64,000 nucleotides of DNA from a virus. Lineage: Duplodnaviria > Caudoviricetes. The position numbers and the translations under genes were made by a program. Positions within the stretch are counted from its first letter, which is position 1, and each line of letters starts with the position of its first letter. This document shows positions 40,380 to 64,000 of the stretch, piece after piece. Under the pieces are notes generated by a model. That model was not told the DNA's origin. It worked only from the letters and a program-made list of their open reading frames with translations, and searched no databases. Location: IMG/VR virus record IMGVR_UViG_3300014205_000174, one strand, 5' to 3'.

Positions 40380-43300
40380 ATGTCACGACCAATATCAGAA
40401 AAATTTGTAAAAAGCAGGAAGCCCGGCGCATGGTGCGTTAAGGTGAAAGGAGTATATGTTATCCGCACCTGGCCGGACAAGCCTGGACAGGCAATAAAGC
40501 TTGGTGAAGGAGCTTCACAAGGTAAAGCGTGGTGGGATGCAAAACGTTTTCTTGAAAAAGAGGGTGTGGAGGAGTTTAAACTGTAAACTATGCCTACAGT
40601 AAAAAACAGAACAAAAAAAGGTAAAACTACCTCTGTCTATATCCCAGAGCTGAAAATGACGGTTCAGGTTAAGCCCGGTAGTACTGTGGAGGAGACAAGG
40701 AGGAAATATTTGTCTGCTAGGGAATTTGAGAACAAACGGCACGTGTACTTTATTGAGAATGAAAATATAGATTAAATCACCATGACGACAATTACAATAC
40801 CCATAGGGTGCGAAGGGGGTGCGTCAGAACAACAGTTCCGGACATTCTGCGAACACTTTTCCTGTACGTTAGAAAAAAGAAAACTCGGTGCGGTAGAGTG
40901 GGTTATCCATGCCGAAGATGCAAATGATATCTTCTGGCTTGGAGCAAACATGAACTTCCGTCATAAGGATGGCGTCTCTATTAGTGTGGCTAGCAAACTT
41001 TTGAATAATGAGCAAGGGCGGTGTTATAGTTGAAGTTGTTTCCGGAAAAAGGGCTGGTAAGTTTGGTCAGGTTCCAATTGCAAAACAGCAGTTGAAGTTT
41101 GCAAAATTACTTAAGGTGTGGGTGGAGTACTTTGAAGACTGCAATTGTCAGGTGCCGGTACTTGAGAACGGACGCAAGGTTGATGGTCTTACTTCCGCAA
41201 TAAATATTAGACGCATTGGATTCTACGATTAAAAAACGTATAAATTAGGTTGAAATGAAATTTGAAAATCACATAGTACGTAAAGCGCTGGAGAATCCTA
41301 CAGATTTCACCATTGAGGTAATAGAGGCAATAAAGGGCAGCCAAGTGACCGCAGAAGATATTGAGGGAGAAAAGTACAATGACGTGGTACACGCCATGAG
41401 CCTTAAGGGTAATAAAACCTACTACGTTACAAAGTCCGTTGTAGACAGGTTGGAATTACTTGATACAAAGAAGTGCATGGATATAGAGGGATGGAAGTTA
41501 TTCTCCGGTTTGCCGGACTTCAAAAAAACGTACATCCTGCCGGAAATGCCAAAGGATTATTCAAAATACGGCGGCAGCGGATATGTGCGCGTGGCTAAAT
41601 ACGGGGATGTAATTATCTTCATACACGTAACCAGTAAGTTTCTGCCACCAGAAGAGCGTACCAAGACTACAGATGCTAGTATGTACATAGTCATGCTTTA
41701 TATTGACATGCGGGAAAACGGGGATGGTATGTGCGCGCATTGGAATAGTGCAGACGGCAAATCCTTAGCACCATTCCTATTTTCGCTTATGTGCTTTGTG
41801 GAGCTTTGTGATAATGAGGTAATTGTGGTTGAGCCAAAAGCTAAGTACGGCACGCAGAAATCCGGTAAGATAATAAATACCACACCATTCCCGATAACCA
41901 TTATCAACAACACATGGAACATAACGAAGGTGCTGCAAGGTACTATATGGGTTTGCGGCCATGCTCAGATATATTGGACGGGTTCCGGCAGGACAGTACC
42001 TAAGTTGCTATACAAAGAGCCCTTTACGAAGGAAGGGTATACGCTACCGTCTGGGAAGGAAAGGCAGCAGAAAAAACTAACTTTATCTTCATAAATTCAA
42101 CCAATAAAAACAACATATTATGGATACTCAAAACAAAAACACACCCGCTACAGGGGATATTTCAGAGTTTATACCAACCGCCAGCAATGATGGGGCTATT
42201 TATTCCGTTCCTTGTGAGCCGACTTGTGGCCCTGCCAGTCGGTGGGAAGAAGGTGAGAAGGCCTACATCGGCACCAAGGTTGTTCGCGGCATCGCTATGA
42301 CCGAAAGCGACTTTCTCAAAAAGCATAAAGGAATAACCGAGGATGAGCTCAGTAAGCGCGAAACATACGGGGAGGGTTACAAGGTCACCTATGAGGACGG
42401 CTATGTGTCCTGGGCCCCGAAAGACATATTCGAGCGGTGCTACCGCGAGGTGTCCAATAAGGAATTTGGCATTTTATCAGCATTTTAATAACCTGCATTT
42501 TGGCTAAGAAGAAAGATAATACGGGATTCCGGAACGGAGATTTGTTCTGCTTTAATTGCGGGGGTAGTAAAAAGCTTGTGCTCCCAATGGAGATGGGGAA
42601 GGCTGGGAATATGATGATTGCCTTTGCCGATGAGCACAGCGAATGCAAAAAAACCTGGGAGGAGCCACATTGGTCTGAGACGGAGCATCTTCCGATAGAG
42701 GGGAAAATTTTTTGGTGGTTTACAAAAGCCAGCCGTGGTTCAAGTAGCATGGCTATATATGATTTCATGACCGTTGGTTTGCTTCCGAACAAACGATACG
42801 AAACGCCATCAGACCCATCAGATTTACACCGCTGCTATGTTTTGCTAAAGGCTATACCCGAATGGCGGGAGCGACTTCCTGAAATGAAAGTAGTTGGCGA
42901 GGTGTGGGCCAGGATTATAGATGAATGGGATAAGTTATCGGGCCTACTGGAAGAGCATATGGAGGGTAAGAAAGGCGGCGGTATCCTGTACAATTTTATG
43001 AAGACGCTTGGGTGTTAAATCAAAAAAAGGAGATACTTAAAAAACAAACCAAAATATTATGAAATACAAAATCTTAAAAGGAACGAAATTGTTCGACCAG
43101 TTCATTGAGCTGAAGAAAAAGATGGTAACGGCCAAGAAGGCTGCAAAAGAGCTGGTAAAGGAAGTTGCGCCAGTTGACACCGAATGGTATGCCCCGCATG
43201 AATCCATAGCCGGAGGTGTTGACGCCTTTATAATACCTGGCGGCAAGCCAGATGGGTGGGTAAATGCTTACATCCCGCATGAAAAGGATGTATATAGGCC

Positions 43301-51781: not shown

Positions 51782-54700
51782 ATGGGCGTAACAAAGGCCA
51801 CTAAAAATAAACCGACCAGTAAAAAGCCTTCTGCCGCGAAGGCCGGTGTTGTATTGCCTGTACCGGCAACGCCAGCTCAATTGCGCCGTCGCTGGAATAA
51901 AAAAACTAGCCAGGTGGAAAAGCTGGCAAATAATATCCAAAGCCTGCGGTATAATCTCACTACTGATATGAAGAGTGATGACCAGAAGGTGTTTCTGACG
52001 GCTCTTTGTGTAAAGTGCATGGAGCTTACTGGTGAGCGTGTCGGCAATGACGAAAGCGCTGCTAATGGGCATAGGGGTATTACTGGATTGCTTAAATCCC
52101 AGGTAAAGGTAGAAGGTAATAAGGTTTCATTCCGGTATACCGGTAAGTCCGGGGTTAACCAGGATAAATCCGTAACGGATGAAAAACTCGCTGATGGCAT
52201 ACGTCGTGCGAAGGAAATATCCAAAGCGAAGTATCTTTTTTGTACAGATGACGGGTTTAAGATAAAGAATGACCGCGTCAACAGGTATCTGGCTGACTTT
52301 GAGATTACGGCAAAGGACTTGAGGGGCTTTTCTGCCAACCGCTGGCTGATACAGAAGTTAGTGGCCAATGATATCGCTGACGAGGAGAAGGACAGAAAAA
52401 AAGACTTCAATGCATTTGCAAAGGTTGTTGCTGCGAAAGTGGGCCACGGTACCGGCATGCTGAAAAACCAATACCTCATACCGGGGTTGGAAAAGGCGTA
52501 TGTAGAGGAAGGCAAAATAATAGACATCAAGGATATTGCCGGATATAAAAAAGGTGGTGGCGTTGAAAAGATGGAAAAGGGTGGTGTTGTGGCTAAAAAA
52601 GAATCCACTAAAAAACCAAGTCCCAGTGAACCTGCGGGAAAGACAATAAAATATTCCGAGTTTAAAGAAGATATCCAAACGTTTATATTTCAGTTCCTAG
52701 AGGATAGCGGGGCTCCGGATAAGATTCTCGATAACCTATACCGCGCAAGGTTTGTGGTTAAGCCGTATCCTATAAAAAATATTTCTCCGGAAGTAAATGA
52801 GGCGTCCCTGGATAAAGACCGGGGTGTACAACATGCGGCAAAGTTCAAAAAAGACAAGTACCAGCCGGTAATATTTTTCAACAACAAACTGATTGATGGC
52901 TTCCACAGGGCCTATTCTGAAAAACAAAAGGGTGCATCGGTTCTGTATGGTATCGAGCTGTCTGATGTTTTGCATGAAAAGAAGGCGGAGCTGAAGGCCG
53001 GCGGCCAGGTATCCAAGCCCGACCCATTTAACGAATGGTTTGCCGGCAGTAAAGTTGTCGATAGCAAGGGCCAGCCACTTATTGTTTATCATGGCACCGA
53101 TGCTGAAAATATTACAACATTCAATATTGATTTAGTTCGCGATAAATTTGGTTTCTGGTTTTCTGACGATAAGGAGTTCTCGGAAATGTTTGGCACTACA
53201 GCCATACCGGTATACCTGTGCATTAAAAACCCGCATGTAATAAGCAAAGAAAAATGGGACGATATCCGACGTGCGCATGCAAAAGATGCAGTGTGGTTTG
53301 CATCATGGCGTGACCAGTTAATATCCAAAGGTAAAGATGCGCTGATAATTGAAAGCAGCGATACGACCTTTGCTGGCACGAAAATACGTAATCCAGAAAT
53401 TTATGCGGTATTCCATCCAACGCAAATAAAGCTTGCTGACGGCTCCAATACCACATTTGACGGCAACAACCCAGACATTCGATTTGAGAAGGGCGGCCAT
53501 ATATATCGCAGTGTTGGCATGGAAGGTTACCTGGTGGGTAAAAGCAGGTGTCCATATATCGGCAAAGAAAAAGAAATTGATGCTTACGACACGGATATCC
53601 GTTGCTTCGTTTCCGAAACCAACGATACCTACCGGTTTATTTATGTTGTAAACAAAAAGAATGTTTCCGTTCTTCATATTCAAAAGGAAGGTGCTGACTG
53701 GGTAATCCGCAATGCATTTACCTTAGAGCATCACCGCAGACATGGGTATGGCCGGAGTCTTTACCTTGAGGCGCAGAAACATTTGCGCAGAGTTGTATTT
53801 TCGTCCAATTTGAGCCAGGAAGGCAAGGCATTTAAAGAAAATGTTACTCTAGAAATGCATATTGGTAATAATACGGAAATCGGTAGGATTGACGATGAAA
53901 CAGATACCCAGTTTCAGATAAAAGGAACGTGGTATGCAAAATGGATAATAAAGCCAGCGGCGGTCGCTGAAGATAATGAAGGTATACTTGTTCCGGATAA
54001 GATAAAGCCGACGATGATTATATCTGCATTTTCAAATGAGATGGATTGGGATAAGGTAGAGCGGTATGCTGATATTATGAAGGAAAGTGGTATGGAGCAT
54101 GGTTTCCCTGCTATATCTGGGTATCCTATTATTATTGATGAAAACGAAATTGGAGACCAGTTTCTTACCGGTGAGGAAGTGTCTGAACATCATGTTGGTC
54201 AGTTAGCGTGGAAGGTAACCAACGGCCATCATCGTTCTTTGGGGGCCATAAAGGCAGCTCTGCCATGGATTGACGTTGAGCTTGATTATAGTACGGTAAC
54301 TAACATGGAGCGCCATAAGCGCACAAACGGCAAGTACTACGAATCTGGCGGCATTACCGAAGATGATGAACCGAAGTCGACATTAGACCAGCTAAAAGAA
54401 GATGTTTCCGCTTGCAGGAACTTTGACATTTTCAGGGGCAGAATTGCCCTGCGCGAACCAGATGAGGTTAACGAGATAATGACTGTCCTTGGTCTTGAAA
54501 AAGCAACTACCAGGGAAATTGGTGATATTAATCTGAAAAAGCTGAAGGACTTTTATACTCAGGAAAAGCGCATAGTAAATGAGCGTCGTAAGATAAGGGG
54601 CAATGAGGCGGCAGCTATCCGCACTGAAAAAAATGTTGAGAATATCTTTGACCTTGCTAAAATATTAGGTGACGACATGGATAAGGCTGTACTGGATTAC

Positions 54701-56251
54701 GAAGAAAAGAAAGCCGCTATCAAATACCCGGTACAATTAATTACCGTGGAGCCATCTATTTTAGATGTGCTCAATGGCCTTTCGGATAAAGGATGCAGGG
54801 CGCTGATAGTTGGTGGCGCTGTCCGTGACGCTATTCTGGGCATCACCCCGAAAGATATAGACATAGAGGTTTATAACATAACCTACGCAGACCTGAGCGA
54901 ATACTTATCGCAGTACGGGAGAGTTAACCTTGTTGGTAAGAACTTTGGGGTTATTAAGTTTAATCCGGCAGCAGGTGGAATGGAATACGACTTCTCCGTT
55001 CCAAGAAGGGAAAACAAGATAGGTGTAGGCCACAAAGAATTTGAAGTGACCTTTGATACCACCATGACCATAAAGGATGCCGCAATGCGCAGGGACTTTA
55101 CGTTTAACTCCCTTGCGTATGACCCGGTATCCAATACGGTGTATGATTACTTTAATGGCCTGATGGATATCCGGCTCAAAGTAATAAGGCACACGTCTGA
55201 AAAGTTTACTGAGGACGCGCTGAGAATACTCAGGGCCATGCAGTTCCAAGCCAGATTTGATTTCACCATCGCTGAGGATACCAATACCTTAATGCGGGAA
55301 ATGCTTACTACCTCTGATGAGTTTGCATCCTTGCCAAAGGAGCGTGTTTTCGAAGAGTGGTACAAGTGGGCCTCAAAGGGCGTCCGCCACGACCTTATAT
55401 TCTCGTTCATGCGGGATTGCGGCCTTATCGACTGCTACCCGGTATTAAAGGCGCTGGCAGAAACGCCGCAGGACGCTGTGTATCACCCGGAGGGGAATGT
55501 GGAGGTGCACACTACCTTATGTCTGACTTATATGGACTCTATCTTGTCCCGGATGCCGGATATCCCGGCTGACGAGAAAGTAGTGCTGGTAATGTCCACG
55601 CTGCTTCATGATGTCGGTAAGCCTGCAACTACAGAGGAGCAGCTAAAGAATGGCAGAATGACGATTACAAGCAATGGCCATGAGGCATTGGGCGGTAAGA
55701 TGTGTCATGATTTTTTACCTTCGCTTGGGTTCCATAAAGATTTGGTAGACCCTATAGCTAATATTGTAGCTAATCATTTGGCTGGCGTGAATATTACCAT
55801 GATACCGCATGAGAGTGGCAGGGTAAAGGCAGTAAAGAAGCTAAGTAAGCGATTGTACCCGGCAACTATCCAGCAATTGCTGCATGTGATGGATGCAGAC
55901 AGTAATGGGCGTGGCTGGGAAGAATACAAAGAACCTACCGGTGCAAAGGAGCTGACGACCATAGCCGCAGACATAAACGTGACGGACAGGCCCTATGAAT
56001 TTATACTTCTGGGGCGTCACCTTATAGAAGCAGGGCTAAAGCCGTCTCCTGCATTCGGGGAGATTTTACGTAAAGCAAACGAGGCCCAGTTAAACGGCGA
56101 ATTTAATGATATTACCGGTGGCAGGCAGTGGCTGAAGGATAATTTGGATAGCTTTGTCAATGGCGGCATTATTAGTGCACCAGTTGATTTGTTTGCCGAC
56201 TCGCCTGGTGCACCAGTTGTAAATAGTGCAGTGCCGGACTTATTTCAATAA
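51782..56251 (+). CDS. polyvalent protein: topoisomerase IB / ParB-like / ART-like / GNAT / ParB-like / CCA-adding enzyme with HD domain
   Basis: TopoIB R86, K122, R181, H222, Y231; IDGFHR; PLIVYHGT...GFWFS...E.YAVF.P.QIK; HRRHGYG; VTNGHHR; VGGAVRD..DIDIE, RRDFT.N, EDALRILR, HPEG.V..H, LLHDVGK. Confidence 0.85.
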   Translation: MGVTKATKNKPTSKKPSAAKAGVVLPVPATPAQLRRRWNKKTSQVEKLANNIQSLRYNLTTDMKSDDQKVFLTALCVKCMELTGERVGNDESAANGHRGITGLLKSQVKVEGNKVSFRYTGKSGVNQDKSVTDEKLADGIRRAKEISKAKYLFCTDDGFKIKNDRVNRYLADFEITAKDLRGFSANRWLIQKLVANDIADEEKDRKKDFNAFAKVVAAKVGHGTGMLKNQYLIPGLEKAYVEEGKIIDIKDIAGYKKGGGVEKMEKGGVVAKKESTKKPSPSEPAGKTIKYSEFKEDIQTFIFQFLEDSGAPDKILDNLYRARFVVKPYPIKNISPEVNEASLDKDRGVQHAAKFKKDKYQPVIFFNNKLIDGFHRAYSEKQKGASVLYGIELSDVLHEKKAELKAGGQVSKPDPFNEWFAGSKVVDSKGQPLIVYHGTDAENITTFNIDLVRDKFGFWFSDDKEFSEMFGTTAIPVYLCIKNPHVISKEKWDDIRRAHAKDAVWFASWRDQLISKGKDALIIESSDTTFAGTKIRNPEIYAVFHPTQIKLADGSNTTFDGNNPDIRFEKGGHIYRSVGMEGYLVGKSRCPYIGKEKEIDAYDTDIRCFVSETNDTYRFIYVVNKKNVSVLHIQKEGADWVIRNAFTLEHHRRHGYGRSLYLEAQKHLRRVVFSSNLSQEGKAFKENVTLEMHIGNNTEIGRIDDETDTQFQIKGTWYAKWIIKPAAVAEDNEGILVPDKIKPTMIISAFSNEMDWDKVERYADIMKESGMEHGFPAISGYPIIIDENEIGDQFLTGEEVSEHHVGQLAWKVTNGHHRSLGAIKAALPWIDVELDYSTVTNMERHKRTNGKYYESGGITEDDEPKSTLDQLKEDVSACRNFDIFRGRIALREPDEVNEIMTVLGLEKATTREIGDINLKKLKDFYTQEKRIVNERRKIRGNEAAAIRTEKNVENIFDLAKILGDDMDKAVLDYEEKKAAIKYPVQLITVEPSILDVLNGLSDKGCRALIVGGAVRDAILGITPKDIDIEVYNITYADLSEYLSQYGRVNLVGKNFGVIKFNPAAGGMEYDFSVPRRENKIGVGHKEFEVTFDTTMTIKDAAMRRDFTFNSLAYDPVSNTVYDYFNGLMDIRLKVIRHTSEKFTEDALRILRAMQFQARFDFTIAEDTNTLMREMLTTSDEFASLPKERVFEEWYKWASKGVRHDLIFSFMRDCGLIDCYPVLKALAETPQDAVYHPEGNVEVHTTLCLTYMDSILSRMPDIPADEKVVLVMSTLLHDVGKPATTEEQLKNGRMTITSNGHEALGGKMCHDFLPSLGFHKDLVDPIANIVANHLAGVNITMIPHESGRVKAVKKLSKRLYPATIQQLLHVMDADSNGRGWEEYKEPTGAKELTTIAADINVTDRPYEFILLGRHLIEAGLKPSPAFGEILRKANEAQLNGEFNDITGGRQWLKDNLDSFVNGGIISAPVDLFADSPGAPVVNSAVPDLFQ

Positions 56252-56271
56252 CACACGCTTAATCACACAAT

Positions 56272-58773
56272 ATGTCAGTAAAAACTTTACCAAAACCAAA
56301 TAGGGGTACTGGGTACCTGGCTGGCAAGCAGAACGGCAAGACTGTTATACATACAGATGGCGACCTTGGGGGCGTACTCGTTGGTGCGCGGCACAGCGAT
56401 GGCGGCATACCTGCTGTCAACGAGAGCACCAATAAGCCGCTGGAGGTGGAAAAGGGTGAGGTGAGCATTACGTCTAAGGCCGTGACCAATACTGAAGTAT
56501 ATAATTTTGATGGGCAAGAAATGACCGCTAAGGAAGTGCTTTCGAAAATAAATAGTGACGCCGGCGGGGTTAAGTTTAAAAAGGGCGGTACGGTTGAGCG
56601 TACCTATAGCCTGAATGGTCAGCAAATGACCGATAAGCAGATTGAGCAAAAACTGCATGGGAATAAAATTGAAGACAAAAGGGACGGGAATAAAATTTCC
56701 TACTCCGGTGGCGAAATTATAATTACCCGACCCGCTGTTATGTCTAAGGAGACCCATAATTTCTGCGGTAGTCAGCTTACGAACTTTCAAATCCTATCTA
56801 AGATTAATGTGGATAGTGGCGGCATAGCCTTTGCGGATGACAATGCAGACGTATCAGTAAAGCCTAATGACCTGGAATATGAATTTGGTGGGAAGGTCAT
56901 GAAGGGATATGAGATAGTTGAGCAATATGCATGCGGATGTAAAATGGAAGATGGTGGTGTGGTGAATGATTATCCAACTGTAAAGTTATCAACCATCAAG
57001 AAGCTGCAATGGTATGTGCGTCCTGACGGCAAGACAGAGTTACAGGCGGAAATTAATGGGGAGCATAAAAAAGCCGTATTTGATGATGCCGATAATAAAA
57101 TAGGCTATTATGGTTTATGTAATACTGCGGACAATGCACTTAAGTTACTTGAAAAGTATTTTAAGATAAAAATAAAACGCGATAAGTATCCTGGGTACTT
57201 TGATTCTGGTGGTGAAATAGCAGACACCGACTATGAAATAATTCCCGCAGAGAATAGCGGGCGTGGCGTGACAGAAAAAGTTCGTATTACTGATGATAAA
57301 GGCAGGGTGGCCGAATATTCTATTTTCGGCGGCGATATACCTTATGCCATACAGTGTGCGCGGCAATCATTAAAGTGGCAGCAGGAAATTGACGATATAG
57401 TTGGCCCTGAAGGGGATTTATCTGAATATGCACAGTCTATTTATGACAATGCGCTGACCAGGTATAAAAAAGCGGATGATAGAAAGAAAAAGGAACTATT
57501 GCGTAAGCTCAGGTTTAATATATCCATGATTAGGCCCGTTCTTAATTCAGTACAGGCTGGCAGTATTGAAAACATAGAATTTGTCCGCGCCGGTGAAAAA
57601 TTCCTCAAAGACCACGCCCCTGATTTCATGAGACATGGTGGTGTCGCAGAAGGCGGCAGGCAGTCAAACTTTGATTTCCTCAGTGAAAAAATATCCTCTG
57701 GTGATTTAATCATTGACCGTAATGGCATAGTGAGAACATACGCATGGCATAGCGGTGATGGCAGGCTCGTCGTTGAATCCGATAATATACCAAGCCGCCA
57801 TGGGCCAGTTACTATGTACAAAATAAAAGTAGACGGTGTTGAAAAAGAAACTACCGATGATTACGCCATGGCCCTGAATCATACGCGGGAATATTTCTTA
57901 AAGCATCAGGCTGGCTCTCACATGGAAGAAGGGGGCGTTATAGAAAGCCTTACTCCTCAGCAGCAATATGACATAGGGAATTACCTGCCAGTTAGAATAG
58001 GAGGCATAAATAATGGGTGTGCCTGGGCTGACGTATTTAATGACGAGGGCCTGCTATCTTCGGAGCCGAAGTCGCTGGATTACTATTATCAGATTGCCAT
58101 TAAAATAAAACCCGGAGCGGCATACCTTGAAAGGGAGGGGTTCTGGGATGATTTCGCAGACCGCATGGAAGAGTTAGGGCGGCCGTTGTCGTATGAGCAA
58201 GGCGGTAGGCTCCAGGGTCGGGAAAATTGCACTTACGAGCAACTGGTTGCAAAATATCCAATGCGTGACGGCTATAGCATCGGCAATCTCCAGCTCGATA
58301 ATGCTGCAACGGGTAAGACTACACCCTATTGCGTTGTAAATAAAAAAACCGGTGTATTAAATAAGCATGGGCGTGATGAAATGGAAGTTGTAGCATATTA
58401 CCAGCAGATAGGGCAAAATACACTGCAACTATGCGAAAATCCATATGCTGCACGTAGCCAGGAGAAAGCGTTGGATAAGGACGTTATTGAAGATGTGTCC
58501 ATAGAAATGGCTGATGTTAGTCAGGATAGTATGGAAGATAATATAGCAGAATGCATAAAAAACCAGAATGCTCTTTACAAAAAAGTCAAGGCATCGAACT
58601 GGGACAGGCTTGCGAAAGCTACTTTTTATAGCATGAAACTTACTGAAGCAAAGGCTAATTTCAGTACGTATCAAAATATAGAAGGGGAATTCATGTCGGA
58701 ACTAATGAATATGTGCGATTGGTTGATGAACAAGTGGCAGAATGCGCTTGACGAGGTGCGGGTGCAAAAGTAG
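56272..58773 (+). CDS. large multidomain protein with repeated xxGG linkers
   Basis: GGVLVGARHSDGGI...EVEKGE domain, partly duplicated; seven [FYM]xxGG motifs. Confidence 0.65.
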   Translation: MSVKTLPKPNRGTGYLAGKQNGKTVIHTDGDLGGVLVGARHSDGGIPAVNESTNKPLEVEKGEVSITSKAVTNTEVYNFDGQEMTAKEVLSKINSDAGGVKFKKGGTVERTYSLNGQQMTDKQIEQKLHGNKIEDKRDGNKISYSGGEIIITRPAVMSKETHNFCGSQLTNFQILSKINVDSGGIAFADDNADVSVKPNDLEYEFGGKVMKGYEIVEQYACGCKMEDGGVVNDYPTVKLSTIKKLQWYVRPDGKTELQAEINGEHKKAVFDDADNKIGYYGLCNTADNALKLLEKYFKIKIKRDKYPGYFDSGGEIADTDYEIIPAENSGRGVTEKVRITDDKGRVAEYSIFGGDIPYAIQCARQSLKWQQEIDDIVGPEGDLSEYAQSIYDNALTRYKKADDRKKKELLRKLRFNISMIRPVLNSVQAGSIENIEFVRAGEKFLKDHAPDFMRHGGVAEGGRQSNFDFLSEKISSGDLIIDRNGIVRTYAWHSGDGRLVVESDNIPSRHGPVTMYKIKVDGVEKETTDDYAMALNHTREYFLKHQAGSHMEEGGVIESLTPQQQYDIGNYLPVRIGGINNGCAWADVFNDEGLLSSEPKSLDYYYQIAIKIKPGAAYLEREGFWDDFADRMEELGRPLSYEQGGRLQGRENCTYEQLVAKYPMRDGYSIGNLQLDNAATGKTTPYCVVNKKTGVLNKHGRDEMEVVAYYQQIGQNTLQLCENPYAARSQEKALDKDVIEDVSIEMADVSQDSMEDNIAECIKNQNALYKKVKASNWDRLAKATFYSMKLTEAKANFSTYQNIEGEFMSELMNMCDWLMNKWQNALDEVRVQK

Positions 58774-61128: not shown

Positions 61129-61671
61129 ATGACACCAGATAAAGTAAAGAAAAGAATTTCCCCATACCTTGAAACCATTACAGAAGCATGTATATTTTAT
61201 CCTTTATTGGATACTAAAGGATATGGCAGCATTCAATATAGGGTGCCAGGGAAGAAAGTGCATTACAGAGCGCATAGGGTCTCTTTTGAATTAGCAAATA
61301 ACTGCGAATTACTGCAAGCAGATGTAATATTACACTCCTGCGATAATCCAGCATGCATTAACCCGCGCCATCTTACTAAGGGTACTCACGAAGATAATCA
61401 GCGGGATAAGATGGCTAAGGGCAGGCAGGCCAAGGGTAAAACCAATGGCAGATACGTGCATGGTTATTATTCAAAGTTTGAGCCTGTGGCAAAACCTGTT
61501 CCGGATTTTCAGACTTTATGTAACAGAAGTATTTCTCTTGAAACTGCAAAAGCGATTAAAAGCAGAATTAAAGTCGGCGGCTGCAAGTTAATAGACCTAT
61601 CTAAGGAGTTCGGCATACCGTACCAAACTATAAAAGATATTAGTGCAGGAAGGGCATATAAAAACGTATAG
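61129..61671 (+). CDS. HNH endonuclease with C-terminal HTH
   Basis: GYG...AHRVS...ILHSCDNPACINPRHL..GT..DN..D...KGR. Confidence 0.88.
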   Translation: MTPDKVKKRISPYLETITEACIFYPLLDTKGYGSIQYRVPGKKVHYRAHRVSFELANNCELLQADVILHSCDNPACINPRHLTKGTHEDNQRDKMAKGRQAKGKTNGRYVHGYYSKFEPVAKPVPDFQTLCNRSISLETAKAIKSRIKVGGCKLIDLSKEFGIPYQTIKDISAGRAYKNV

Positions 61672-63380: not shown

Positions 63381-64000
63381 ATGGCGGATACAACCCTTAA
63401 GGAATTAACGGAGATTGTAGAAAATGATGGTAAAAGATTAGAAAAAAATCTTTCCATTGTAAGTGATGTTATTGTAAAGGAGGAGACTATCTATGACGGC
63501 ACCGATGCCGGAGAAGATGAATTTAAAGTGATACCCACGCCGAATTTTAGCGATGCAAAATCTGTAGGTACCGTGCTCCCTATCAACATGGTGAGCGAAA
63601 CGGTAAATAATCTTTCCCAGTTAGCCAACCAGTTTGACCTGGTAGACCATGTAAAGGAAAAACTAAATTACGCAAGCAGGATTGAGGTGATACGTATATT
63701 CTCCAGTGAGCAGGTGGACGCCATTGTGTTGGCTATCCGCCAGTTTGAGAAAGGGAATGCCTTTATCCTTGGTGATTCTGCCGGTATAGGTAAGGGCCGC
63801 GTTGTTGCGGGCATGCTTCGTTACGCATACCAGAACAAGCATATCCCTATATTCGTTACACATAAGCCATTCCTGTTTTCGGATATCTATCGCGACATTA
63901 AAAAAATAGGTGGTTTTGGCGCTGAGAAAGCTGGCAAAATCATTGAGCCGGTACCATTTATTTTAAATTCAGGCAATAAAGAAGAATGCATCATCAAGGA
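63381..64000 (+). CDS. strawberry-notch family SF2 helicase, 5' part (runs off the window)
   Basis: Open from ATG 63381: SSEQVDAIVLAI...AFILGDSAGIGKGRVVAG...LFSDIYRDI; missing from the ORF track because no stop is in the window. Confidence 0.8.
   Translation, partial: MADTTLKELTEIVENDGKRLEKNLSIVSDVIVKEETIYDGTDAGEDEFKVIPTPNFSDAKSVGTVLPINMVSETVNNLSQLANQFDLVDHVKEKLNYASRIEVIRIFSSEQVDAIVLAIRQFEKGNAFILGDSAGIGKGRVVAGMLRYAYQNKHIPIFVTHKPFLFSDIYRDIKKIGGFGAEKAGKIIEPVPFILNSGNKEECIIK

Follow-up and report, generated by a model that had tools for sequence, protein, structure and literature searches.

The stretch of DNA analyzed here (64,000 nt, in the following called the window) belongs to IMG/VR record IMGVR_UViG_3300014205_000174 and is part of a 211,455-bp contig with phage-type gene content. 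It carries two co-oriented neighboring genes, separated by 20 bases, whose products P0001 and P0002 (Table 1) are punctuated by copies of a seven-residue peptide centered on Gly-Gly. P0001 is a polyvalent protein, in which unrelated conflict-type domains including the signature domain ART-PolyVal are found within one polypeptide, and comparison with viral relatives suggests that the Gly-Gly peptide marks the junctions between such modules.

Modules and Gly-Gly joints of P0001 and P0002

Along P0001, the match to ART-PolyVal (PF18760) reaches 73 bits at a cut-off of 31, and residues 1007-1440 are matched by the tRNA nucleotidyltransferase family phrog_2244; the further assignments are listed in Table 1. 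The tandem pair of motifs at residues 255 and 264 is kept in the relatives P0164 and P0165. Modules 58-63% identical to the GNAT-like one are present in P0162 and P0174 and are followed by a motif there, and homologs of residues 696-852 in P0162, P0163 and P0167 each have a motif just before them, in P0162 and P0167 also one after. Pfam matched nothing in residues 275-400, and a ParB-like identity proposed by eye for this segment (DGFHR) and for residues 696-852 (NGHHR) was discarded, since hidden Markov models (HMMs) gave no support for it. No tRNA genes were found in the 64-kb window, despite P0001 ending in a CCA-adding enzyme.

A sequence-only reading of this DNA had listed thirteen heptapeptides for the two proteins, and all of them are found at the residues given there, with position 52544 being the first base of YKKGGGV and position 58212 the last base of YEQGGRL. 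Two of the thirteen, YESGGIT and MRHGGVA, match a looser pattern only, and a further strict match, LIVGGAV at P0001 residue 1008, belongs to the nucleotidyltransferase head domain, whose catalytic Gly-Gly it represents, and is no joint. Matches to the strict pattern [FYML]xxGGx[VIL] number 12 in P0001 and P0002 (2322 residues), clearly above background (mean 0.49 and maximum 4 in 2000 shuffles), and 3 in the 16,702 residues of the other 103 open reading frames (ORFs) of the window (Poisson p about 4e-14). The same picture is obtained for Gly-Gly dipeptides, 12 out of 26 of which stand in the motif context in the two proteins versus 3 out of 59 elsewhere in the window. P0002 is somewhat rich in glycine (9.2%) and its Gly-Gly dipeptides exceed those of shuffled sequences, which could have pointed to chance or to a mere artifact of composition. 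This explanation is refuted by the fact that none of the 2000 shuffles reaches the observed count, by the enrichment in 148 relatives described below and by the conservation of motif positions in alignments.

At the DNA level, the copies have GGY GGY in common, plus ATG GAA in four Met-type copies, with synonymous sites varying and no longer direct repeat being found at the motifs. The earlier view that the DNA is not repetitive and that selection acts on the peptide is thereby upheld, as the only DNA similarity found at the motifs is the one forced by the peptide; for the same reason a DNA-level repeat or recombination site was dismissed. Internal translation starts at the Met-type motifs were dismissed as well, since most copies begin with Phe or Tyr. 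The motif is confirmed to be real, with selection acting on the peptide. Elsewhere in the window, a 74-residue ORF (41008-41232) opens with MSKGGVI, which places a motif at its extreme N-terminus, and shows no similarity to any polyvalent-protein module.

For P0002, no Pfam or PHROG family was matched, and its architecture was therefore judged from an AlphaFold2 (AF2) model built with 56 sequences, in which the mean predicted local distance difference test (pLDDT) score is 61, the N-terminal 100 residues score above 90 and at least five folded units can be told apart. The dips in pLDDT given in Table 1 coincide with motifs 102, 225, 310 and 453 and lie between folded units. The claim that the motifs of P0001 fall at domain boundaries can thus be kept, as they are found at module ends there; the same holds for these four of the seven motifs of P0002, which lie in low-confidence linkers, but not for motif 203. 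The latter forms the hairpin turn of a beta-beta-alpha unit of about 20 residues, which occurs four times in P0002 (residues 76-96, 111-128, 161-181 and 202-218; window 56497-56925) with the pattern aromatic-x-aromatic-x-G-x-x-M/L-T-x-x-E-I/V-L.

About 90 residues at the N-terminus of P0002 form a strongly conserved domain with the signature G-x-R-H-S-x-G-G ... E-V-E-x-G-E ... L-S-K-I-N-x-D-x-G-G. Fold searches with Foldseek and VIA-align yielded generic helical-bundle matches only for the full P0002 model and no specific PDB match for the domain (best Z 2.4), and a profile search against PDB sequences gave no match. Crassvirus cargo protein 1 (PF25725) showed an Atlas feature score of 0.93 to this domain, with 150 features in common. 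The PF25725 HMM matched neither the relatives nor P0002 at E<=5, and the cargo-protein lead is a language-model signal unsupported by HMM.

Relatives were found on IMG/VR viral contigs, some of them complete by CheckV estimate. A pattern scan for relatives of the N-terminal domain in 185,579 species genomes found none, and searches of 50,697 phage records with P0002, with this domain alone and with the HExxH protein discussed below gave zero matches. Besides the two giant genes, the window contains an IS605 OrfB/TnpB-type gene inside the virus genome (34229-35428; phrog_506, E 1e-116), in line with OrfB_IS605 and Cas12f1-like TNB being among the Pfam families of the window; a fragment of the same family stands at the start of the relative G002. 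Further downstream follow an HNH/His-Me finger homing endonuclease gene (61129-61668), two HNH endonuclease genes being present in G002 as well, and the start of a gene with an AAA_34 helicase domain (P-loop pore-1, strawberry-notch type; 63381-63998), which runs off the window.

Table 1. Genes, modules and Gly-Gly motifs of the P0001-P0002 locus (window coordinates; residue numbers refer to the respective protein).
Feature	Coordinates	Strand	Basis and remarks
P0001, polyvalent protein, 1489 residues	51782..56251	+	ORF; Pfam Topoisom_I, ART-PolyVal, PolyA_pol, HD; phrog_2244
Topoisomerase IB (TopoIB) module, residues 40-251	51899..52534	+	Pfam Topoisom_I 40-226; PDB 2f4q (bacterial TopIB) aligned to 40-251
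Joint YKKGGGV (255)	52544..52564	+	begins 4 residues past the end of the TopoIB match (251)
Joint MEKGGVV (264)	52571..52591	+	after TopoIB match; second of tandem pair
Unassigned module, residues 275-400	52604..52981	+	different, longer segment in its place in P0164
Joint LKAGGQV (404)	52991..53011	+	BLAST matches of the ART module begin at 402-423
ART-PolyVal ADP-ribosyltransferase module, residues 416-567, ends NPDIRF	53027..53482	+	Pfam 427-559
Joint FEKGGHI (568)	53483..53503	+	Phe is the final residue of the ART signature NPDIRF
GNAT-like module, residues 574-688	53501..53845	+	weak Pfam Acetyltransf_1/_7, ~618-671, E about 0.03
Decayed joint TLEMHIG, residues 689-695	53846..53866	+	P0162 has YADGGLL after the homologous GNAT module
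Unassigned module, residues 696-852	53867..54337	+	homologous modules in P0162, P0163, P0167
Joint YESGGIT (853, loose form)	54338..54358	+	between module 696-852 and a helical segment
CCA-adding enzyme / poly(A) polymerase-type nucleotidyltransferase + HD, residues 990-1440	54749..56101	+	Pfam PolyA_pol 1008-1136, HD 1263-1354
Joint FVNGGII (1458)	56153..56173	+	18 residues past the end of the CCA match (1440)
P0002, multi-module protein, 833 residues	56272..58773	+	ORF; structure model
N-terminal domain, about 90 residues (13-110)	56308..56601	+	invariant G34, G38, H41, G45, G81, N94, G99, G106; pLDDT >90
Joint FKKGGTV (102)	56575..56595	+	right after N-terminal domain; pLDDT <50 at 105-108; F102, G105, G106 (nearly) invariant
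YEFGGKV (203), hairpin turn of fourth beta-beta-alpha unit	56878..56898	+	strands 202-205 and 208-211, helix 212-218 (model)
Joint MEDGGVV (225)	56944..56964	+	pLDDT <50 at 222-233; missing in some homologs
Joint FDSGGEI (310)	57199..57219	+	pLDDT <50 at 305-319, between two folded units
Joint MRHGGVA (453, loose form)	57628..57648	+	pLDDT <50 at 452-472, after helical bundle; MAQGGMA in P0003-P0007
Motif MEEGGVI (551)	57922..57942	+	within low-confidence stretch 502-623
Motif YEQGGRL (641)	58192..58212	+	within low-confidence stretch 636-749

The motif in relatives of the two proteins

An exhaustive profile-free search with P0002 yielded 746 protein clusters at E<=1e-3, and its homologs carry 3-9 motif copies each, flanking Pfam domains. 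The N-terminal domain is common to nearly all of the best 150 of the 746 clusters and is found at the start, in the middle or at the end of proteins that can be as long as 2109 residues. In the best 148 representative relatives (132,991 residues), 515 motifs were counted as compared to 9.6 expected by shuffling, an enrichment of about 54-fold. A logo calculated from 174 contexts reads [Y.36, F.34, M.20, L.10]-[A.41, E.24, K.21]-[K.26, D.22, E.15, N.11]-G-G-x-[V.37, I.32, L.30], with uninformative flanks. The context was also examined without pre-selection, using all 1917 Gly-Gly dipeptides of motif-rich proteins. At position -3, F, Y and M were enriched 4-5 times, L occurred at its background frequency, and I and V were outside the nine commonest residues; two residues after Gly-Gly, V, I and L were enriched about 3 times. 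This asymmetry of residues around Gly-Gly is specific and unlike that of generic domain ends.

The ART-PolyVal proteins found with the middle part of P0001 (63 in total) fall into two classes, 30 of them with 2-9 and 33 with 0-0.7 motifs per 1000 residues. The C-terminal ART signature NPDIR[FY] is present in both classes. In the motif-rich class it is followed by xxGG in 53 out of 53 copies, and in about two thirds of these the second residue past Gly-Gly is aliphatic, whereas all 14 motif-poor ART ends continue with Ser, Lys, Gln and similar residues, without Gly-Gly. The N-terminal domain of P0002 travels with the motif, being present in 13 of the 30 motif-rich and in none of the 33 motif-poor ART proteins, and occurs once per complete genome. 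Since the next domain often begins only 4-5 residues past Gly-Gly, as for example in GGSTLLAPNGKP, there is hardly any linker besides the motif. An ART domain is also present in the polyvalent proteins of Dolichospermum phage Dfl-JY45 and Bacteroides phage BF1-TP2, at 0.4-0.6 motifs per 1000 residues. A relative of the TopoIB module (L044), which is a stand-alone gene without the motif, was uninformative. As judged from these sequences, the motif is a lineage-wide junction code and a feature of one uncultured virus lineage. The giant genes gp79 and gp80 of the uncultured phage cr130_1 (L046) were excluded from the motif count; under translation table 11 they contain 26-31 in-frame stops, as would be the case if one stop codon has been reassigned in this crass-like phage.

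It had further been suggested that the motif allows domains to be swapped. In agreement with this, a comparison of BLAST breakpoints of P0001 modules with motif positions showed that the breakpoints fall at motifs in both partners, and modules are found to be gained, lost and moved there. P0164 and P0165 (849 and 853 residues) are about 67% identical to P0001 over the TopoIB part and align to its residues 1-274, then 342-572, then 853-991. Their single YEDGG motif aligns to both 568-572 and 853-857 of P0001, which indicates that the GNAT-like module and the one following it were inserted in P0001 exactly between two motif copies. Similarly, the TopoIB module lies between motifs 1149 and 1385 in P0172, the GNAT module forms the start of P0162 with motif 119 after it, and the module corresponding to residues 696-852 is enclosed by motifs 1684 and 1842 in P0162 and by motifs 1758 and 1924 in P0167. 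In an alignment of four further proteins (L002-L005), which share 31-58% identity, the columns of the motif are conserved, with one 106-residue indel lying between motifs and the other indels not being so placed.

Such a pattern could also be left by a passive hinge combined with a recombination scar, that is, by a minimal linker which is carried along with shuffled modules, is kept uniform by descent and in-frame exchange and has no reader. The gain, loss and movement of modules exactly at motifs would be expected in this case, the loss of a module could have left tandem copies behind, GGY GGY is the sole DNA in common, and the AF2 model shows the Gly-Gly as unstructured. Nevertheless, we regard this explanation as unlikely. 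Six shared bases are too few to drive homologous exchange, the asymmetric preferences, for F/Y/M and not I/V before Gly-Gly and for V/I/L and not F/M after it, persist even though the flanking modules have diverged to less than 30% identity, and polyvalent proteins of equal size and with shared domains manage without the motif.

The copies at protein ends are also difficult to reconcile with a hinge. About one in six relatives (24 out of 142) ends 0-2 residues past a motif, with endings such as ...DIRFKNGGYVRI and ...WRFENGGKIKN, in which the x positions vary and G-G-x-aliphatic is kept, although there is nothing left to be hinged. In a set of 224 proteins, 31 end with Gly-Gly plus 1-4 residues, one of them with a single residue after the dipeptide, and none ends at Gly-Gly itself. 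Since terminal copies are frequent and copies near the N-terminus are rare, the motif can be assigned to the C-terminal end of a module. Its retention at C-termini is the strongest argument for the motif being read by something, and it appears that a passive hinge cannot explain these copies. They would be more in keeping with a tag that is recognized, be it cut or left intact, than with a site serving for release alone.

In the complete relatives G001 (100,322 bp) and G002 (102,228 bp), two IMG/VR contigs both rated 100% complete, 15 and 23 motifs, respectively, lie inside one cluster of adjacent giant genes, and 1 and 2 in all other genes, where 0.6 and 1.3 are expected by chance. Since its copies are restricted to the polyvalent cluster of both genomes, the motif is not a general maturation site of structural proteins. 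By analogy with the internal proteins of T4 and phiKZ, it could have been a site of a head-maturation protease common to capsid, scaffold and other structural proteins, a reading that is disfavored and seems highly improbable: outside the cluster the motif occurs at chance rate, the peptidase families S78 and S14 were not found in relatives (the search for S77 being uninformative), and Pfam revealed no virion or structural genes among the 103 ORFs of the window. Taken together, these comparisons show a motif that lies at module and protein ends, is lineage-specific and serves as the site of module exchange.

The G002 cluster contains Zeta toxin, ART-PolyVal, DUF5661, LPD11 and DUF2958 modules, and an Eco57I methylase is also among the modules of relatives; like ART-PolyVal in P0001, these are domains of the polyvalent class as described previously (PMC5512222). 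It is interrupted by a trio of genes for a beta-propeller-like protein (weakly TrAA12-like), an AAA_5 MoxR ATPase and a DUF7192 protein (L003:14998-19760). In L001 (12802-18288), the polyvalent gene is followed by a 539-residue gene of no family, then by AAA_5 and then by DUF7192. The ATPase gene of L001 shows an additional weak LAGLIDADG match, possibly an intein. Directly downstream of the G002 polyvalent cluster lie two SLT lytic transglycosylase genes (L025:6432-8526), which are the only circumstantial point for a delivery of the polyvalent proteins together with the DNA.

Candidate proteases and readers

In search of an enzyme that might act on the motif, no peptidase was found by Pfam among the 103 ORFs of the window. 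A PHROG "peptidase" match next to the G002 cluster turned out to be one of the SLT lytic transglycosylases. A scan for HExxH identified one 261-residue protein that is conserved in G001 and G002 (L026:5177-5959 in the latter) and present in 11 out of 11 related viral contigs (L034-L043 included) at 42-91% identity. All 9 sequences compared have H188, E189, H192, E202 and D206 in common, in the arrangement HExxH ... E-x-E-A-D-x-N-G, and Atlas gave weak leads only (0.83-0.84) to DUF4344 and M48. This protein, known from the contigs of relatives, is a possible processing enzyme and the only candidate for this role, and it may represent a new zincin. In the more distant relatives L013 and L015, a gene for a SprT-like zincin is present, which in L015 directly follows the polyvalent gene.

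The most likely reading, to which we would assign a probability of about 0.45, is that the motif constitutes a proteolytic processing signal. It is ranked above the other readings because enzymes with different targets would need to be separated from each other (PMC5512222), because processing at Gly-Gly-X has a precedent in African swine fever virus (ASFV; PMC10308890) and because a candidate zincin is at hand. In this reading, P0001 and P0002 are multi-effector polyvalent proteins of an uncultured large bacterial virus, with modules joined by a lineage-specific seven-residue peptide of the consensus [Y/F/M]-[A/E/K]-[K/D/E]-G-G-x-[V/I/L]. With the first residue of the motif, the buried part of the module before it would often come to its end, as with the Phe or Tyr of NPDIR[FY] in ART-PolyVal, and the Gly-Gly would be flexible and exposed, with the next module starting a few residues on, so that the motif would be essentially the whole linker. 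We infer that it is recognized in trans as the mark of a module end. A protease would separate the modules by cutting at or next to Gly-Gly, either once they have been delivered or while the particle matures; for a zinc protease, the cut would be expected directly in front of the aliphatic residue.

Several observations speak against such processing. Copies located 0-2 residues from the C-terminus would free only a tiny peptide, linkers of about 4-5 residues between Gly-Gly and the next domain may hinder a protease, and motif 203, one of the thirteen originally listed, lies within a folded unit of the model. Individual sites are lost in close homologs, which implies that no single site is essential. 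In addition, S78 (PF04586), S14 (PF00574) and MPTase-PolyVal gave no match in the related records searched, complete ones included, C48/Ulp1 (PF02902) remained without a match at E<=0.1 in a set of five related records that included four complete ones, and C39 (PF03412) had none in the five; S77 (PF03420) was not matched in relatives either, in a search that is uninformative since its control matched nowhere. The HExxH protein, for its part, has no Pfam or PDB match, and since it belongs to the core genes of a single lineage, finding it together with the motif does not count as independent evidence.

Alternatively, the motif could be an uncut docking or loading tag, bound by a protein of the packaging vertex or the inner particle, by the MoxR/vWA-like pair that relatives encode within the polyvalent cluster or by the N-terminal domain of P0002, where many copies would provide avidity for loading into the particle or for threading out of it. 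Terminal copies that always keep G-G-x-aliphatic suit binding, as do tandem copies that have no domain between them and are conserved in orthologs. The confinement of the motif to the polyvalent cluster of the complete relatives, the restriction of the N-terminal domain to motif-rich ART proteins, the beta-propeller/AAA_5 MoxR/DUF7192 trio within the cluster and the failure to find known protease families in the window or in the related records searched all point in the same direction. The N-terminal domain could act as reader of the motif, as particle anchor or as an enzyme. On the other hand, it has no known fold, the cargo-protein lead is unsupported by HMM, for the packaging of polyvalent proteins into particles the sole basis is what Iyer et al. 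(2017; PMC5512222) suggest, and all of the associations lie within one lineage. We consider an uncut tag possible but somewhat doubtful.

Relation to known systems and significance

Proteins in which unrelated conflict-type enzymes are strung together in one polypeptide in mosaic order, as in P0001 with its signature ART-PolyVal domain, have been described before, and it was argued that these polyvalent proteins need to be processed into functional units (Iyer, Burroughs, Anand, de Souza and Aravind, 2017, J Bacteriol; PMC5512222). The proteins studied here differ from that class in two respects. The enzyme proposed for its processing, the MPTase zincin domain, is absent from P0001, P0002 and the relatives searched, and other ART-PolyVal proteins, those of the cultured Dolichospermum and Bacteroides phages among them, are without the motif. 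The terms "linker," "glycine" and "GG motif" are found nowhere in the main text of that study (PMC5512222), and no description of this Gly-Gly junction peptide was found in the searchable literature. While the polyvalent class itself is known, what is new is that its members can carry a defined junction code specific to one lineage.

Among viral proteases, a comparison with those acting at Gly-Gly suggests itself. The adenovirus protease, with the consensus (M/I/L)-X-G-G↓X, is to be seen among the clan CE cysteine proteases, and in this consensus the upstream hydrophobic residue is one position closer to Gly-Gly than in the motif described here. In ASFV, the protease pS273R processes the polyproteins pp220 and pp62 at Gly-Gly-X (PMC10308890). 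Both systems share with P0001 and P0002 a Gly-Gly-centered motif at the boundaries of products (here of modules), with a hydrophobic residue upstream and often a hydrophobic one after it. They differ in that no Ulp1/C48 protease was found in the complete relatives, that the substrates here are enzymes and not core-shell proteins and that cutting is only proposed here.

Short consensus sites are likewise read by prohead proteases, namely L/I-x-E by gp21 of T4 and S/A/G-x-E by gp175 of phiKZ, and processing is also known for DarA and DdrB of P1 (cited in PMC5512222). HK97 gp4 is another prohead protease with such cleavage sites. These systems resemble the one proposed here in that anti-host proteins delivered by the virion carry a short consensus for a viral protease, which in the present case is only a proposed one. 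In contrast to the motif, which is restricted to polyvalent genes, their site also occurs in capsid and scaffold proteins and their protease is recognizable, while S78 and S14 were not found here.

In a further parallel, the precursors of polyubiquitin, SUMO and NEDD8 consist of head-to-tail units ending in Gly-Gly, the last one carrying a short extra tail, which is reminiscent of the proteins described above that end in Gly-Gly plus a tail of 1-4 residues. The units preceding Gly-Gly are, however, unrelated enzymes here and not beta-grasp domains. Double-glycine leaders of the C39 type differ in being N-terminal and single, and neither C39 nor Ulp1 was found in relatives.

Polyvalent proteins are regarded as the weapons that a phage or plasmid sends into a cell first, and how up to 15 unrelated enzymes strung together are packed, delivered and activated is an open question, for which the junction code gives a handle. 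As the code is common to hundreds of protein clusters, it predicts where modules start and end and thus helps to dissect unknown domains. It also shows where evolution swaps cassettes and provides a defined peptide for assays of cutting or binding. A bolder version of the processing reading, which we put forward as a tentative and rather improbable proposal, would be that a large group of uncultured bacterial viruses, with contigs of 60-211 kb here, builds injected anti-host enzymes as polyproteins which are cut at Gly-Gly by a dedicated viral protease outside the known glycine-specific families, with the released modules keeping a functional C-terminal tag. If cutting at Gly-Gly is true, a bacterial virus would make use of a polyprotein maturation like that of large eukaryotic DNA viruses, carried out by a new enzyme, and a functional, uniform C-terminal tag on each released module would explain why the motif is found even on the last one.

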